This document shows positions 18,654 to 24,284 of a DNA stretch of 64,000 bases, one piece after another. The position numbers were made by a program, and so were the translations under genes. Below the pieces are notes generated by a model that did not search any database, was not told the origin of the DNA, and saw only the letters and a program-made list of their open reading frames with translations. Each line of letters starts with the position of its first letter. Within the stretch, counting starts at the first letter, position 1. The DNA comes from Kofleriaceae bacterium. GTDB lineage: Bacteria > Myxococcota_A > Polyangia > Haliangiales > Haliangiaceae. Where the stretch lies: contig CBDCCZ010000054.1 of the NCBI GenBank assembly GCA_965215005.1, positions 269,069 to 333,068 of the forward strand. Reading direction: 5' to 3'.

Positions 18654-18693
18654 CCTCGTGGTTCACGGCGTGTGTCGTGAACCACGGGGTTTC
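18654..18693. terminator. Intrinsic terminator between acs and the V4R gene
   Basis: cctcgtggttcacggc-gtgt-gtcgtgaaccacgggg stem of about 16 bp followed by tttc. Confidence 0.7.
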
Positions 18694-18712: not shown

Positions 18713-19195
18713 TCAGGCGATATGAAGCTCGAACCCGCAGGCTTCATGGCCGAGGCCGCCGATGCAGGTGATTTCGCGCGCCTTGGTCTTCTTGCGAAGC
18801 ACTCCTTCGACCGCGCCGGCAATCAGTCCGCCCTCGAAATGGCAAAGCACCCGCCCTACTGGCTCCATGCCGCTGCAGGTGATGCACTCGTAAACGTCGA
18901 CTTGCATCTTCGACTCGGTCATCACAGGCACCTTGATGACACCAATCTTCAGCGTCTCGCAGAGAGCCAGAAAATCGTCTAGCGAGGTCAATCCGAGCGA
19001 CGTGCCGAGCTTCTTTCCCGCGACGTAGGCGGTGCCGGCAGCGCCTCGACCGATGATGTCCTCGAGCGCGACGAGACGGAGAAGCCGGTAAAGGGCTACG
19101 CCAACGTTGTCTCCCAGCGTCGGCCGCAGGATCTTGAGGGCGTTGGCAACGTCGACGTTTTGTTCCCTACTCGCGATGGGGGCCACTTCATTCAT
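18713..19195 (-). CDS. Standalone V4R (4-vinyl reductase) domain protein
   Basis: RPTLG..V...YRL, AYVAGKKLG, ECITCSG...LCHFEGGLIAG...EITCIGGLGHEACGF with the conserved V4R Cys residues; GGAGG RBS. Confidence 0.85.
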   Translation of the reverse strand: MNEVAPIASREQNVDVANALKILRPTLGDNVGVALYRLLRLVALEDIIGRGAAGTAYVAGKKLGTSLGLTSLDDFLALCETLKIGVIKVPVMTESKMQVDVYECITCSGMEPVGRVLCHFEGGLIAGAVEGVLRKKTKAREITCIGGLGHEACGFELHIA

Positions 19196-19610
19196 GCATC
19201 ACCTCCACGACACGGTTAGCACGCTCTTCGCCGACGTGTCACTGAACGCTTTCAACGCACACGTGGGCGGAGAGTGGTCTCATCTGGACAGACCGCGCGA
19301 GGTCCCGCGAATGCGTCACCCGTGATGGGTGAGTACGATGAGTGGGCGAACTTCCGTGGGGAAACGCCAAAACTGCCGTAGGCGACACTTGGCTGACGCA
19401 ATTGGTGATGTTGATGACGTCGAACGCAGATGATGAGCCGCGCGGAATACGAAAGCAGGGGTGAGAGCCGAAAAATTGGCCGTCTGGTCACGTAGTTTGG
19501 TGAAGGCTTGCGGTAGAGATAAGCCGACCGAGAACTGTTGGTGGCCGCTTTTACGAACATCGTTGTTGTTGATTCGCTAGCGGCAGAGCCCTAGCTTTGA
19601 GCCGAGCTTC

Positions 19611-20987
19611 ATGCGCGTTCGCACGGAAAAGGGCAACGCCCACAACTTCGCCCCCGGATATCGCTTCGGACGCTACACCGTTCAACGATTGCTGGCGCGC
19701 GGAGGCATGGGCGAGGTTTGGCTAGGGACAGTGAGCGGTCCGGGAGGCTTCGCAAAGCGGGTGGTGCTCAAGACCATCCTGCCGGAGCTCGCTGTCGATC
19801 AGAGCTATGTGCGCATGTTCATCAACGAGGCCTCGCTCGCCGCGCGCCTCGATCACCCCAACATCGTCCAGGTGTTCGACCTGGGTGAGCTCGATGGCGC
19901 GTACTACATCGCCATGGAGTACGTGGCGGGGGCGACGCTGTTGCAGCTCGCCGCGTCACACGCTCGGCAAGGTCGGTTGTTGCCGCGGTGGTTCGTCGCC
20001 GCGGTAATCGCCGAGGCGTGCGACGGCCTGCAGTACGCGCATGAGTTCGTGGACGAGGAGCTCGAATCGGCGGGCGTGCTGCACCGCGACATCAGCTTGA
20101 GCAACGTGATCGTCTCGAGCGCTGGACGAGTCGCGCTGCTCGACTTCGGTGTTGCTACGGCCGCCGATGGACCCGACAAGACCCAGTCTGGCTCGCTCAA
20201 AGGCAAGTTCCAGTACATGGCGCCCGAGCGGATTCGCGGCAGCGATGCCGACCGCCGCTCCGATATCTACTCCGTCGGGGTGCTGCTCTATGAGCTGCTG
20301 GTGGGGCGCAAACCGTTTCGCGGACGCACCGAATACGAGCTGTTCCGCTCAATCTTGGCGGCGGATGCGCCCGCTCCTAGCGAGCTCACCGCGGGGGTCC
20401 CGCCGGAGCTAGACGCGATCGTAGCGCGCGCGATGGCCGCCGACGCCGAACATCGATACCAAAGCGCCGACGCGCTCGCCTTCGACTTGCGCGGCTTCGT
20501 GCGCATGACCGAAGCGCCTGGCGAGCGCGCCGATATCGCTGCCTTCGTGCGCGCCGCGTCCGAAGACGATGAGCCGCTCATCGAGCAGTCCTACGACGAC
20601 ATCTCCTCTGTGCTCGCCGAGCTTCCTTCGGTCGATATCCAGCTAGAGGAAGAGGGCTCGCTGAGCGCTCATTTTGCTGCGGCTTCGGAGGCGTCGTGGA
20701 GCCCATCATTAGATGACGCCGCTGGGGGTGAGCCCGAGGACGTGCTGCGCCAGCGGTGGCCGCGCGCGTCCTCCTCGCTTCCCGAGGTGCCGGTTCAAAC
20801 GGCCACCTCCGGAGACCTGTTTCCTGAGCTCACCCCAACTCGGCGCACTGTCATTCGTGAGGTCGCCGACTTGTTCAGCGCCCCGGCAGACGCCGCGAAT
20901 CGCACCTCAGATGTCTTCGAGACGACGCCGCGTGACGGCGTTCGCGCCGAGGGCCGTTGGCCCTGGCTAGACAAAGAACGCAAGTAA
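19611..20987 (+). CDS. Cytoplasmic Ser/Thr protein kinase with an acidic C-terminal tail
   Basis: LARGGMGEVW, VVLK, HRDISLSNV, DFG, KGKFQYMAPE; no TM segment. Confidence 0.9.
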   Translation: MRVRTEKGNAHNFAPGYRFGRYTVQRLLARGGMGEVWLGTVSGPGGFAKRVVLKTILPELAVDQSYVRMFINEASLAARLDHPNIVQVFDLGELDGAYYIAMEYVAGATLLQLAASHARQGRLLPRWFVAAVIAEACDGLQYAHEFVDEELESAGVLHRDISLSNVIVSSAGRVALLDFGVATAADGPDKTQSGSLKGKFQYMAPERIRGSDADRRSDIYSVGVLLYELLVGRKPFRGRTEYELFRSILAADAPAPSELTAGVPPELDAIVARAMAADAEHRYQSADALAFDLRGFVRMTEAPGERADIAAFVRAASEDDEPLIEQSYDDISSVLAELPSVDIQLEEEGSLSAHFAAASEASWSPSLDDAAGGEPEDVLRQRWPRASSSLPEVPVQTATSGDLFPELTPTRRTVIREVADLFSAPADAANRTSDVFETTPRDGVRAEGRWPWLDKERK

Positions 20988-21000
20988 CCTGGAGGAATTT

Positions 21001-21369
21001 GTGGGAACCCTGGCTAAGAGCGTGAGTGATCAGTTGCGCGTACTGCGTACGAGCACACCGGAGATTCTCGGCGCCGTCGTCGTGACGATGGACGGTTTCG
21101 TGGTGTCGTCGGTGATCCCCTCGGAGGTCGACGAAGAGCTCATCGGCGGCATGGCAGCGGCGCTCTTGGGTGTGGGCGAGCGTATTGCCCATGACTTGAT
21201 GCGAGCGAGCATGGAGCAGGTCTACGTTCGCTCTCCCAAGGGATACGTAGTAATCAACGCAATCTCCAAAGATAGCGCCTTGGTTCTGTTGGTTACGCGG
21301 GAGGCAAAGCTCGGCCTCATCTTCCTGGAGCTGAAACGAGCTATTGCCGAACTGGCGAGGGTGATGTAA
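21001..21369 (+). CDS. Roadblock/LC7 (MglB-like) domain protein
   Basis: GAVVVTMDGFVVSS, MAAALLGVGER, EQVYV..KGYVV, KLGLIFLELKRA; GGAGG RBS. Confidence 0.9.
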   Translation: MGTLAKSVSDQLRVLRTSTPEILGAVVVTMDGFVVSSVIPSEVDEELIGGMAAALLGVGERIAHDLMRASMEQVYVRSPKGYVVINAISKDSALVLLVTREAKLGLIFLELKRAIAELARVM

Positions 21370-21374
21370 GAAGG

Positions 21375-22163
21375 GTGCGGGAAGGGGGGAACTTGTCAGC
21401 AGGGGGACCAGCAAAGATCGGATGTGCGTTAGCCTTGTTGGTTGGGCTGGCGGACCTCATGGTGCTCAACTTGCAACTTGCGCCGGCAGCGATGCGTGCC
21501 GACGAGGCTCCGCCCGAGGTAATGATGGCGGCTGGCTCGACGCAGCCCGCAGCAGCCAAGGCAGTGGTTCGAGCAATGCCACATGCTGCTGCTCGAACAG
21601 CCGCGAGTGCAGTAATCAATCCGCAGGCAGACCAACGCGCAGGTCATGACGAGACAATTTCCGACACAGCGGCGGATCCGGAGGCTGAGCTCGTTGCCAC
21701 GCTAGATCCTCCGTCTGAAGCGCCTGCTGGTGAGGCGCCCGCCTACGAGGTGACTGAAGATGCGACTGAAATCGAGGACGAGGCTTCGCCGGAGTCGAGT
21801 GACCCGCTGCCACGCCTGGTCTCGTCGGTCGCAATCTACTTCACGACCGATCGAGCAACGCTAGGTCCAAGGGCGCAGGAGCGGCTAACGATGTTTAGCA
21901 CCCGCATGCAACGAGCCTCGGGTCGCAGCGACGTGCGCGTGCACATCCGCGGCTATGCCGACCGGCGCGGAGACGATTCGTATAACGAGATTCTAAGCAG
22001 AAAACGGGCGGAGCGAGTTGCCTCCTATCTAAGCGAACTCGGTTTGGCGCCTGGCGCGATCGAGGTCGCTTGGTTTGGTGAAGACCCACAAGACTCTGTG
22101 CCGCTTTGGAAGATGCGCCGGGTGGACGTCGAGCTTGCACCCTTCGAGGAGGATGTCCCATGA
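21375..22163 (+). CDS. OmpA/MotB-family peptidoglycan-binding protein with an N-terminal membrane anchor
   Basis: Hydrophobic IGCALALLVGLADLMVLNLQL, acidic linker, IYF..DRATL, IRGYADRRGDDSYNEILSRKRAERV, RRVDV. Confidence 0.85.
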   Translation: MREGGNLSAGGPAKIGCALALLVGLADLMVLNLQLAPAAMRADEAPPEVMMAAGSTQPAAAKAVVRAMPHAAARTAASAVINPQADQRAGHDETISDTAADPEAELVATLDPPSEAPAGEAPAYEVTEDATEIEDEASPESSDPLPRLVSSVAIYFTTDRATLGPRAQERLTMFSTRMQRASGRSDVRVHIRGYADRRGDDSYNEILSRKRAERVASYLSELGLAPGAIEVAWFGEDPQDSVPLWKMRRVDVELAPFEEDVP

Positions 22164-22861
22164 GTCCCATCGCGCTTGTATGGTTGGCTTCGCTCCTCGG
22201 AGCTGTGGCGTTCTTCACTGCGGGCGCGCTGTTTGCGCGGAGTCGTCGTGCGCCCGCGCAGCCGGCGATAAATGTCCTCGGGCCGAGAAGCCAAGAGGAA
22301 GACCCATGGGAGTCGGCGCCGGCGCTGGCGCAAATACAGAAGTTGCGCCAGGAAAACGCCGAGCTTCGGCTCCTGGCTGAGCAGAATGCCGCTTTGCAGC
22401 AGCGATTGGATGCTGCGCAAGTCGAGCTTTCGACTCACGAAGAGCACTCTCGTCTCACCACGGTGCCGACGATCTCACTGCCAAGAGCTCCGACCGACGG
22501 ACTCACCACGGCCGCTGCGTTGGAAACGCTATTGGCACGTATCGCGGCAACCGAGGGCATTCGAGCGGTCGTGCTAGCAGATGATATCGGATTGCCGGTG
22601 GCGGGAATTGGCGAATATACCAATCAGCTGTCAGCCTTCGCCGGGTTCATTCGCGACGTTGGCAATAAGACGATGAATCACTTGGCGATGCGCGAGCTCA
22701 TTCGCATCGAGTTGGAAGACGTTGCCGGTACCACCCTCACCGCATGCCCCTTGCGGACGGGAGACGTTGAGCTGTCGTTGGTCACCTTGAGCGTTGGGGC
22801 GAAACCCAGTACGCAACACATGAGTCGGATCCTCGAATCCGCAGGGAGGATGTTCCAATGA
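22160..22861 (+). CDS. Membrane-anchored coiled-coil protein with a C-terminal Roadblock/LC7-like domain
   Basis: N-terminal TM helix, coiled coil QIQKLRQENAELR...AAQVEL, then GIRAVVLADDIGLPVAG Roadblock signature; ATGA-coupled on both sides. Confidence 0.7.
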   Translation: MSPIALVWLASLLGAVAFFTAGALFARSRRAPAQPAINVLGPRSQEEDPWESAPALAQIQKLRQENAELRLLAEQNAALQQRLDAAQVELSTHEEHSRLTTVPTISLPRAPTDGLTTAAALETLLARIAATEGIRAVVLADDIGLPVAGIGEYTNQLSAFAGFIRDVGNKTMNHLAMRELIRIELEDVAGTTLTACPLRTGDVELSLVTLSVGAKPSTQHMSRILESAGRMFQ

Positions 22862-23685
22862 ATCTGCTCCAACAGCGTCCACCACACTCCTACGAGCCCG
22901 CTCTGGCGGAGCCCACTGCATTCGACGCCCTCGAGCTCGATCTAGTGGGGTTGCGGCATGATCTGATGAGCCACGAGCTCTACCCGCTGGTGGATAGCAT
23001 CCCGCGGCTGCGCGTGTTTATGCAGGTCCATGTGTTTGCGGTGTGGGACTTCATGTCCCTCGTAAAGCGTCTGCAAGCGGACCTTGCGGGCACGCAGCTG
23101 CCGTGGCGACCCCCGGTCAGCAAGTCTCTGTCGCGGTTCATCAACGAGGTCGTTTTGACCGAGGAATCCGATCAGGGGCCGGACGGGGAGCCGGAGAGCC
23201 ACCTCGAAATTTATCTCGGGGCGATGGAGGAGATCGGCGCGCCGACCCGCCAGTTCCGCACCTTTCTCGAGCACATCACCGCGGGCGCTTCGGTCCGCGC
23301 GGCGCTGCGCGCGGTAGACGCGCCGCGGTTCGTTCGTCGCTTTGTCAGCTCGACCATCGAATGCGCGATCGAAGGCAGCTCGGCCGAGGTTGCTTCGTCG
23401 TTCCTGTTTGGTCGTGAGGACCTGATTCCCGACATGTTCCAGCGGATCCTTCGTCCGTGGCCAAAGAACGACCTGTCGATCCGACGCTTCCGATTCTATC
23501 TCGAGCGCCACATCGAGCTCGATGGCGATGAGCACGGCCCAATTGCCCGGCGTGCGCTCACCGAGATGGCGGGCACGGATGATCGGCAGTGGAAGATGGC
23601 TCGGAAATCGGCTCGGCGAGCGATTATCTCGCGCGTTCGCCTGTGGGACGGCGTTTGTCGGATCATCCGCGAGGGCAAGGTCTAA
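22858..23685 (+). CDS. DUF3050 family heme-oxygenase-like (HDO) diiron protein
   Basis: FMQVHVFAVWDFMSLVKRLQ, RFINEVVLTEESD, SHLEIYL, GREDLIPDMF, YLERHIELDGDEHGP, RVRLWD. Confidence 0.88.
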   Translation: MNLLQQRPPHSYEPALAEPTAFDALELDLVGLRHDLMSHELYPLVDSIPRLRVFMQVHVFAVWDFMSLVKRLQADLAGTQLPWRPPVSKSLSRFINEVVLTEESDQGPDGEPESHLEIYLGAMEEIGAPTRQFRTFLEHITAGASVRAALRAVDAPRFVRRFVSSTIECAIEGSSAEVASSFLFGREDLIPDMFQRILRPWPKNDLSIRRFRFYLERHIELDGDEHGPIARRALTEMAGTDDRQWKMARKSARRAIISRVRLWDGVCRIIREGKV

Positions 23686-23840
23686 AAGCAGCTCGATGCA
23701 GGCTGGTCTCAGCGCAGCTCGTGCGCTGAGCCGAGCCGCATCCACGAGCTCAGCATGACGAGACTCGTGGGTTGCCCTAGCAAAGGCTGCTAGGTGAGAC
23801 TCTGGCCGGTATCTGCGCTTGCAGCTGGGCGCTGCTAGCG

Positions 23841-24284
23841 CTACGCCCAGGGCATTGCGAGCGCTGCAGCGTCGGGTCCGCCATTGCCGATCATGACGGT
23901 GGCCACCGGCACGATCACCACGGCGTTCATCTTCATGCCGAGATCGTTGCATGAGGTCGCCGGATCCGTCACTCGCGCCGCCGGCTTGCCGTTGATCTTC
24001 ACGGTGAACGAGCCAAGCTCGATGGTGGCGCTGTTTTGCGCCGGACGCTGAAACGTGGTTCCCGGCGGGGTTGGCAAGTGTACCGGCAGGTTGGTCGCCT
24101 GCGACCCCTGGGTGGCCGCTTTGCGATTGTCGATGAAGACGTCGCTCGAGAGCCCGGTGTCGAGTTTGCCGTAAAAGACGTGGGGCAGTGGTGTTGGCAC
24201 CGGTCCGCCAGGCGAGGGCACCATCACGATGTGCACGTCGAGGCCCTGAACGAAGTCATTTTCCTTGGCGGCGGGAAGACCCAT
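23841..24284 (-). CDS. PAAR-domain (spike tip) protein
   Basis: PAAK..D...G.DVH, SSDVFIDNRKAA, GSFTVKINGKPAARVTD...C. Confidence 0.8.
   Translation of the reverse strand: MGLPAAKENDFVQGLDVHIVMVPSPGGPVPTPLPHVFYGKLDTGLSSDVFIDNRKAATQGSQATNLPVHLPTPPGTTFQRPAQNSATIELGSFTVKINGKPAARVTDPATSCNDLGMKMNAVVIVPVATVMIGNGGPDAAALAMPWA

Follow-up and report, generated by a model that had tools for sequence, protein, structure and literature searches.

Two Roadblock proteins, a V4R protein and a Ser/Thr kinase without a GTPase: a candidate envelope-anchored signalling unit of soil myxobacteria

Introduction

What might a bacterium do with two Roadblock proteins, a V4R protein, a Ser/Thr kinase and a peptidoglycan-binding protein when no GTPase is encoded beside them? 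The question is raised by a module of six genes (18713..23685; Table 1) in a 64,000-nt stretch of DNA from a Kofleriaceae bacterium (GCA_965215005.1, contig CBDCCZ010000054.1, 269,069-333,068 of the forward strand), which is called the window below. An initial annotation had read these genes as a candidate signalling system of a composition not described before, and no description of the unit was found in the literature searched, which covered few subscription journals. Most bacterial Roadblock genes that lack a GTPase partner are uncharacterised, and no orphan MglB had been characterised as of Wuichet and Sogaard-Andersen 2014 (PMC4316618).

Comparison of loci showed that V4R, Roadblock-1, the transmembrane (TM)-OmpA protein and the TM/coiled-coil protein Roadblock-2 are, judged by gene content, one inherited unit, usually accompanied by a Ser/Thr kinase and devoid of a GTPase. 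Tentatively, this unit may be a GTPase-less, envelope-anchored phosphorylation switch that reads the redox or nitric oxide (NO) state, as its recurrent pairing with an iron oxygenase or a haem electron-transfer chain suggests.

Table 1. Features of the module and its flanks in the window (aa, amino acids)
Feature	Position	Strand	Basis and remarks
Palindromic hairpin	18654..18692	+	Between the convergent acs and V4R genes; copy of a dispersed REP-like repeat
Stand-alone V4R, 160 aa, Bet3/H-NOX-like fold	18713..19195	-	Pfam, fold search; GGAGG before the start
Probable sigma-70-type promoter of the kinase operon	19569..19597	+	TTGATT-17 bp-TAGCTT; footprinting only
Soluble Hanks-type Ser/Thr kinase, 458 aa	19611..20987	+	Pfam, alignment
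Roadblock-1, soluble, 122 aa	21001..21369	+	Pfam; distinct from the genome's MglB
TM-OmpA protein: N-terminal TM helix, acidic low-complexity linker, C-terminal OmpA-like peptidoglycan-binding domain	21375..22163	+	Pfam/NCBIfam
Roadblock-2: N-terminal TM helix, coiled coil, C-terminal Roadblock	22160..22861	+	ATGA overlap with the OmpA gene
DUF3050/HamA-family haem-oxygenase-like iron oxygenase	22858..23685	+	Pfam 2e-82; accessory; translationally coupled

Conservation of the unit

The six open reading frames were verified in the window, and the layout given for them before proved exact: the gaps measure 13 and 5 bp, ATGA overlaps occur twice, and the divergent V4R/kinase spacer is 415 bp long. 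Each of the five domain families named for them was recovered by Pfam (V4R 3e-12; Pkinase 1e-35; Robl_LC7 1e-11, in Roadblock-1; OmpA 9e-14; DUF3050 2e-82). Loci were gathered from genomes and metagenome contigs around V4R relatives, and 35 of them, defined as distinct V4R sequences holding both Roadblocks, form the set on which the counts below are conditional. The OmpA protein is encoded at all 35 and a kinase within 3 kb at 28, with a shorter kinase-like open reading frame at two more, L103 and L139. The order seen in the window (V4R divergent from kinase-Roadblock-1-OmpA-Roadblock-2) is one of several: V4R also follows or precedes the other four genes, or stands behind Roadblock-1-OmpA-Roadblock-2 with a convergent kinase, and the order OmpA-V4R-Roadblock-1-Roadblock-2 is found at distant loci. 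The homologues are thus not scattered, as they would be if the proposed module were spurious, and stay together in several orders and several families. Pairwise distances of three core proteins correlate at 0.77-0.85, a value that shared ancestry alone would also give.

Roadblock proteins and the GTPase question

Among solved structures, Roadblock-1 comes closest to Asgard Roadblocks and to CvnB5 (E 1e-23 to 3e-12; CvnB5 3e-12), and MglB is matched at 1e-5. Roadblock-2 stays under the Pfam cut-off (E 0.019, 15 bits), and its identity as a second Roadblock, proposed in the initial annotation, is upheld by a profile-profile match to Roadblock-1 (95%, E 4e-8) and by its predicted fold: the AlphaFold model (predicted local distance difference test, pLDDT, 89) matches Asgard Roadblocks and MglB best (TM-score ~0.76). 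The module Roadblocks were also considered as the genome's MglB and rejected, since a canonical coupled mglBA lies far off on the same contig. An MglA-type GTPase was found at none of the 35 loci with two GTPase queries, nor was a short P-loop gene. A second MglA-like GTPase is encoded at another place in the window's genome, as is a protein with a weak likeness to Roadblocks (G000 C18:298463-299128; C45:11322-11645).

GTPases do occur in more distant cassettes. Outside Myxococcota, five of 131 genomes of the Rhodocyclaceae family (family of G736; L024, Azoarcus sp.) encode V4Rs of 57-63% identity, two of which end Roadblock operons (L228 7843-14881, L229 7793-15020). These betaproteobacterial operons comprise a Ser/Thr kinase-MglA-type GTPase fusion, a protein whose end resembles Roadblock-2, a homologue of Roadblock-1, a PAS protein that we take to be Aer-like, two periplasmic proteins of the phosphonate-binding fold and V4R. 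They resemble the Group 3 MglA systems (PMC4316618). In G218 (L197 7738-12680), co-directional genes encode MglA, DUF4388, two Roadblocks, a helix-hairpin-helix protein, an HU-like protein, an unknown protein and a distant V4R. By its gene content, the window unit looks like a GTPase-less member of this MglA/Roadblock/V4R cassette lineage.

The wall-anchored Roadblock pair could serve as a GTPase-activating protein or adaptor for a GTPase encoded elsewhere, forming a polarity or motility landmark that is modulated by the kinase and V4R. The MglB-like fold of Roadblock-2, the MglA and second MglA-like GTPase of the genome and the GTPases retained in the related cassettes speak for such a role, as do the receiver proteins with DUF4388/PATAN domains that accompany the kinase or take its place in G036, G472, G609 and G629. 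It is nevertheless rather unlikely: besides the empty GTPase search, the affinity of Roadblock-1 to Asgard Roadblocks and CvnB5 rather than MglB and the separate mglBA, the patchy distribution of the unit (V4R subfamily in 29 of 401 genomes of the class) is unlike that of a core motility system, and the alternating redox partners described below would be left unexplained.

The membrane pair

The TM helix of the OmpA protein contains a conserved Asp27 and Asn32; a D-x2-G...N..LS..RA motif is present. The Asp is kept in 31/31 loci of the main clade, all of which encode a TM-anchored Roadblock-2, whose helix in most of these loci, the window included, carries S-x2-GA-x2-FF-x-AG with basic residues after it, which places its C-terminus inside. 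At the four divergent loci, Roadblock-2 is soluble, and the TM Asp is missing in the three with a readable OmpA N-terminus. This co-variation suggests that the two membrane proteins pair; it stays suggestive, as it stems from one evolutionary split only.

An invariant TM Asp combined with a peptidoglycan-binding OmpA domain is the layout of MotB. The two TM proteins might accordingly be a MotB/ExbD-like ion-coupled pair with a protonatable Asp that senses or uses the proton-motive force, which the neighbouring redox chains would alter; a weak NCBIfam MotB match (E 0.0013) covers the OmpA domain only. We regard this as highly improbable, given that the Asp lies mid-helix, that divergent loci keep the core without it, and that a MotA/ExbB/TolQ partner is not among the recurring neighbour families or the window genes (no dedicated family search was made).

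The kinase and its link to V4R

The kinase possesses intact catalytic residues (K54, E73, HRD, DFG, APE) and no TM helix. Its acidic tail ends in a WPW motif (450-452) that is seen in 16 of the 36 rows of kinases adjacent to modules; among the 125 kinases of the window's genome, the module kinase alone has it. Kinase-V4R fusions were found in P0247 and in P0250 with a close relative in G684; their C-terminal V4Rs are the nearest fused ones, and the kinase parts of P0247 and P0250 match module kinases best among 134 kinases, by a small margin. A Roadblock-V4R fusion is represented by a distant protein (P0276), and more distant V4Rs form the input domain at the N-terminus of GGDEF, PP2C, histidine-kinase and sigma-54 proteins. 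Together with the profile match, the structure matches and the TM motifs, these fusions support what had been claimed of the two TM proteins, the pair of Roadblocks and the link between V4R and the kinase.

The V4R protein

The V4R domain scores 46.8 bits against a PF02830 cut-off of 31. Five cysteines (104, 107, 118, 144, 153) and three glutamates (103, 121, 141) are invariant in 35/35 loci and are also kept in six proteobacterial orthologues; a sister subfamily lacks C104. The model (pLDDT 78) matches the folds of YslB, MJ1460, PoxR/MopR and Thor-TRAPPC3/Bet3. Four of the invariant residues, C107, E141, C144 and C153, may constitute a zinc site, by analogy to DmpR/PoxR. YxSxR is the haem-binding motif of H-NOX proteins. 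It is not found among the conserved V4R columns, H119 varies and H-NOX ranks 47-50 in the fold search; a role as an H-NOX haem protein was rejected on these grounds. V4R is 70-79% identical across loci at which haem cassettes stand in for DUF3050. We propose that it is the redox- or NO-responsive input of the unit.

A precedent is MsvR, the V4R redox sensor of methanogens, in which the V4R cysteines drive redox switching (PMC3729527). Both proteins are Cys-rich, and the NCBIfam MsvR model matches the V4R part at E 4e-10. In contrast to MsvR, the window protein lacks a DNA-binding domain and, at 40 vs 220 bits, remains far under the family cut-off.

The search for relatives returned 867 proteins at E<=0.001, the named ones all from Kofleriaceae, and the subfamily is patchily distributed in the class. 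The tally of 29 genomes given above includes the unpublished genome G697, on which no claim depends. V4R was found in none of 401 genomes of the class of G736, in none of five DUF3050-bearing genomes of other phyla and in no viral contigs, and a search of the ESM Atlas gave only generic V4R and OmpA clusters. On the Thiothrix fructosivorans plasmid pTfr153 (L219 11992-16310), a V4R of 64% identity heads an operon that continues with COX3-family, COX4-family, hemerythrin, NorQ-family and VWA genes, with NnrS, two Crp/Fnr regulators and a truncated haemoglobin nearby; from its gene families we read this operon as norE-F-Q-D-like, that is, NO-reductase-accessory-like.

Two further occurrences were noted. 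In three genomes (L187-L189), the gene after a solitary five-Cys V4R encodes an ABC-type ATPase, which in L187 is fused to radical SAM/SPASM. The V4R subfamily is also represented on three small plasmids of Acidithiobacillus ferrooxidans, by a short copy with an incomplete N-terminus (L220 12037-12327).

Exchange of DUF3050 and a haem cassette

The initial annotation had counted DUF3050 as a regular member of the module. As a fixed sixth subunit it had to be rejected: it is an accessory found at seven of the 35 loci, recruited more than once, and a multihaem cytochrome cassette is present at 17-18 loci, the two never occurring together. On a tree of the concatenated core, these states change at least five times, and strongly supported sister pairs differ (e.g. 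L151/L203). The haem cassette encodes a multihaem cytochrome c (four were counted and have 5 or 10 CxxCH), a haem protein of Tll0287-like type and either a small TM protein or an FAD/[2Fe-2S] reductase. In an alignment of the Tll0287-like proteins, a Met is invariant, and Cys residues other than those of CxxCH are not; compared with solved structures, the alignment gave no real match. In the window's genome (92.8% complete), no match to the cytochrome, the Tll0287-like protein or the reductase was found, and there was one weak match to the small TM protein.

Particular cassettes deserve separate mention. Those at L101 14216-18221 and L132 4958-6971 (an FAD/[2Fe-2S] reductase with a TM domain, or the TM domain alone, together with a 5- or 10-haem cytochrome c and a Tll0287-like protein) look like an undescribed trans-membrane electron chain, which is also present, unlinked, in G629. 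At L212 (7678-8874), a haem-oxygenase-like and cupin fusion, which we assume to be of SznF-like layout, converges on a divergent module. Downstream of the haem cassette of L151 (12115-15293), a haem-oxygenase-like gene is followed by that of a 767-aa protein with a DDAH/arginine-deiminase-like domain.

The DUF3050 protein

The sole solved DUF3050 protein is HamA (PDB 9VWB), which the window protein matches at E 3.5e-63. All named site residues are kept: H40, E84, H96, R167, H199, E206 and R240 of HamA correspond to H58, E102, H115, R186, H218, E225 and R259. HamA is reported to be a mono-iron, 2-oxoglutarate-dependent oxygenase that acts on carrier-bound valine and does not accept free valine (PMC12522199). 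Of the term 'diiron oxidase' used in the initial annotation, the iron-oxygenase family holds and the diiron part is unproven, since solved HamA is reported to be mono-iron. The invariant residues E102, H115, E187, H218, D222 and H226 do fit the CADD-type list of diiron enzymes (PMC4520260).

Among the 28 genomes of the class with a full DUF3050, the gene lies directly beside the module in eight and away from it in 20. The adjacent copies span two families, five genera, four positions and at least two DUF3050 clades; because eight of 28 genomes, two families and four positions are involved, the link to the module is not put down to chance. Module-linked copies do not form one clade (approximately unbiased test, p=2e-5, 32/95 rows), so that DUF3050 was recruited more than once; this test was run under a simpler model, without the long partial row L124 and with the unlinked L106 placed in the linked group, and the full DUF3050 tree is a quick tree. 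DUF3050 neighbourhoods outside the class share no family beyond lineage synteny.

The 20 genomes with a distant copy and the lack of a shared neighbourhood would suit a core that is real, with DUF3050 as a passenger of low-oxygen or iron operons. The core would then sense something else, e.g. envelope stress, for which an OmpA domain and a TM Asp are well suited. The eight adjacent cases with their taxonomic and positional spread, the coupled translation and the strict avoidance of the haem cassette make this a very unlikely account.

HamA and MgoB, both of the DUF3050 family, belong to pathways for signals and diazeniumdiolates (PMC12522199; PMC3298696). V4R might thus bind a small hydrophobic or N-oxygenated product of DUF3050 in a chemical signal circuit of the pvf/ham type. 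The complete set of HamA site residues agrees with such a circuit, as do the phenol sensors PoxR and MopR among the structural matches of V4R and the position of DUF3050 directly beside V4R in six genomes (G014, G023, G680, G653, G597, G702). The window protein shares its family and its iron and 2-oxoglutarate residues with HamA/PvfA/MgoB. Unlike these, it is encoded in a signalling operon: no non-ribosomal peptide synthetase, carrier, N-oxygenase or cyclase genes are among the neighbours, and the ham/pvf/mgo context is absent. As HamA needs carrier-bound valine, and the close identity of V4R at haem-cassette loci is at odds with one specific product, we judge such a circuit to be quite unlikely.

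Borders and expression signals

The probable promoter (Table 1) is placed ahead of a five-gene transcript on the strength of footprinting: of the 16 divergent spacers, 13 have TTGAT on the strand of the kinase, in most cases at a distance of 70-135 nt from the end of the spacer. A plain consensus promoter scan returned no sites. Motifs resembling Shine-Dalgarno sequences precede V4R, both Roadblocks and DUF3050; that of OmpA is weaker, and the kinase ATG is without one. Just upstream of TTGAT, a CRP-like box (TGTCA-N6-TCACA type, <=2 mismatches) was observed at L100, L111, L114, L115, L118 and L163; the window spacer matches it at 6/10 positions only (19540-19555).

A strong terminator had been placed at the left border. 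The strong hairpin exists (+ strand, -34.9 kcal/mol, z -3.85) and may terminate transcription without being specific to the unit; the reading as a strong terminator of the module was not supported, given a T tail of 3 only, no call by the terminator scan and at least nine related places in the genome (E<=0.031) among the matches listed. As a dispersed-repeat copy it was rejected as a dedicated boundary of the unit. Three or four successive hairpins (z -2.55) in the DUF3050/PAAR interval (23686-23830) are the likely right boundary of the transcript. A stand-alone PAAR-domain gene (23841-24284, - strand) converges on the module, and no sign of a tie to the unit was seen.

Discussion

Tentatively, and somewhat short of calling it probable, we favour the reading that the two Roadblocks, tethered to the wall, are the scaffold of a kinase and that this kinase is gated by a V4R responsive to redox or NO. 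The genetic unit, the folds, motifs, fusions and the accessory swap are observed, and every interaction of the following scheme is our inference. The OmpA protein would bind peptidoglycan, and its TM Asp would pair with the Ser/Gly-faced helix of Roadblock-2 in the inner membrane. At the end of the coiled coil, Roadblock-2 and Roadblock-1 would form a heterodimer and thereby a fixed cytoplasmic platform, which may hold the kinase, perhaps via the WPW tail, and V4R. V4R, with a putative structural zinc-type site (C107, E141, C144, C153) and the spare C104 and C118, would shift its state by oxidation, nitrosation or metal loading and so switch the kinase. DUF3050 here, and the cytochrome cassette elsewhere, might make or handle the sensed oxidant or N-oxide; whether this step is an input or a regulated output is the weakest part of the mechanism.

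A number of observations weigh against this reading. Many of the 35 loci are close kin, which deprives the counts of independence; seven of them lack the kinase or have another gene in its place, and nine have neither accessory, some of these on short contigs. The mutual exclusion holds per locus and not per genome, as shown by an unlinked DUF3050 in G005 and G574 and an unlinked Tll0287-like gene in G629. Phenols or lipid are the ligands of the solved V4R folds nearest to this one, and the subfamily also occurs without Roadblocks (L187-L190, L204, L210, L214, L215). The link to NO is provided by the single Thiothrix locus: the other three Rhodocyclaceae-family V4Rs stand alone, next to genes for DsrC and cobS, for rhodanese and hydrogenase, or for a polyhydroxybutyrate depolymerase, and display no NO link. 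Stand-alone Tll0287-like proteins are reported to bind NO weakly and to be redox-related (PMC12889525), an NO synthase was detected in none of five module genomes tested (controls positive), and an FNR box is missing from the window spacer, with one weak match among the 16 spacers. Because of these last three points, redox is better supported than NO as the signal.

A wider proposition, which we hold to be doubtful, makes the unit a bacterial counterpart of Ragulator/MP1-p14: a wall-pinned Roadblock heterodimer, joined through an Asp-mediated TM pair, would scaffold a Ser/Thr kinase, and a Bet3-fold V4R would act on it as a haem-free NO/redox switch where an ancestral MglA cassette had its GTPase; the HamA-type oxygenase and the multihaem cytochrome chain would be interchangeable redox front ends. 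How V4R/Bet3-fold and Roadblock proteins cooperated before eukaryotes arose is an open question, and Asgard genomes rarely place the partners in operons (PMC10933270). The unit offers matched partners for both folds as well as a wall anchor and a kinase as output, and its small, soluble proteins are suited to expression in E. coli. The swap of a HamA-type oxygenase for a haem chain provides a testable lead on the function of stand-alone V4R, DUF3050 and Tll0287-like proteins.

Comparison with known systems

Ragulator/MP1-p14 (LAMTOR2/3), TRAPP and the Asgard proteins resemble the unit by analogy, as a membrane-anchored Roadblock heterodimer, which in the unit is putative and would lie beside a kinase and a Bet3-fold protein, and MP1-p14 scaffolds MEK/ERK. 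Asgard Roadblocks are the best matches of either Roadblock, MP1-p14 is matched by both as well, and V4R matches Thor-TRAPPC3 and Bet3. In contrast to these systems, the module has no Rag/Rab GTPase or longin and possesses a peptidoglycan anchor, and its V4R is as near PoxR, YslB and MJ1460 as Bet3.

The neighbourhoods of Group 1 Rup GTPases share a TM-OmpA protein and a coiled-coil protein with the unit, yet they are centred on the Rup GTPase with a c-di-GMP enzyme or histidine kinase, and no Roadblock or V4R is described for them (PMC4316618). MglA/MglB systems (Group 3; PATAN-linked Group 1/5; PMC4316618) similarly have one or two Roadblocks in a signalling operon, and the related cassettes L197, L228 and L229 join an MglA-type GTPase, a Roadblock-1 homologue and V4R. 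Unlike these systems, in which an MglA-type GTPase is expected within four genes of the Roadblock, the module is devoid of a GTPase; it contains a Hanks kinase and a stand-alone V4R, and it has an anchor to peptidoglycan as well as a Roadblock fixed in the membrane by a TM helix. V4R is not mentioned in the main text of that survey; one supplementary file, perhaps with neighbourhood tables listing V4R, lay outside the search.

The actinobacterial conservons (CvnA-D) likewise combine a kinase with a Roadblock, the match of Roadblock-1 to CvnB5 being part of this likeness, and some conservons carry an attached oxygenase (cytochrome P450). They differ in that their kinase is a membrane histidine kinase and that of the module a Ser/Thr kinase, in the CvnC and the CvnD GTPase, neither of which was found among the six genes by Pfam/NCBIfam, and in the V4R and OmpA proteins present here. 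As it has no GTPase, the unit is neither an MglA/MglB system nor a conservon, yet it is assembled from that kit.

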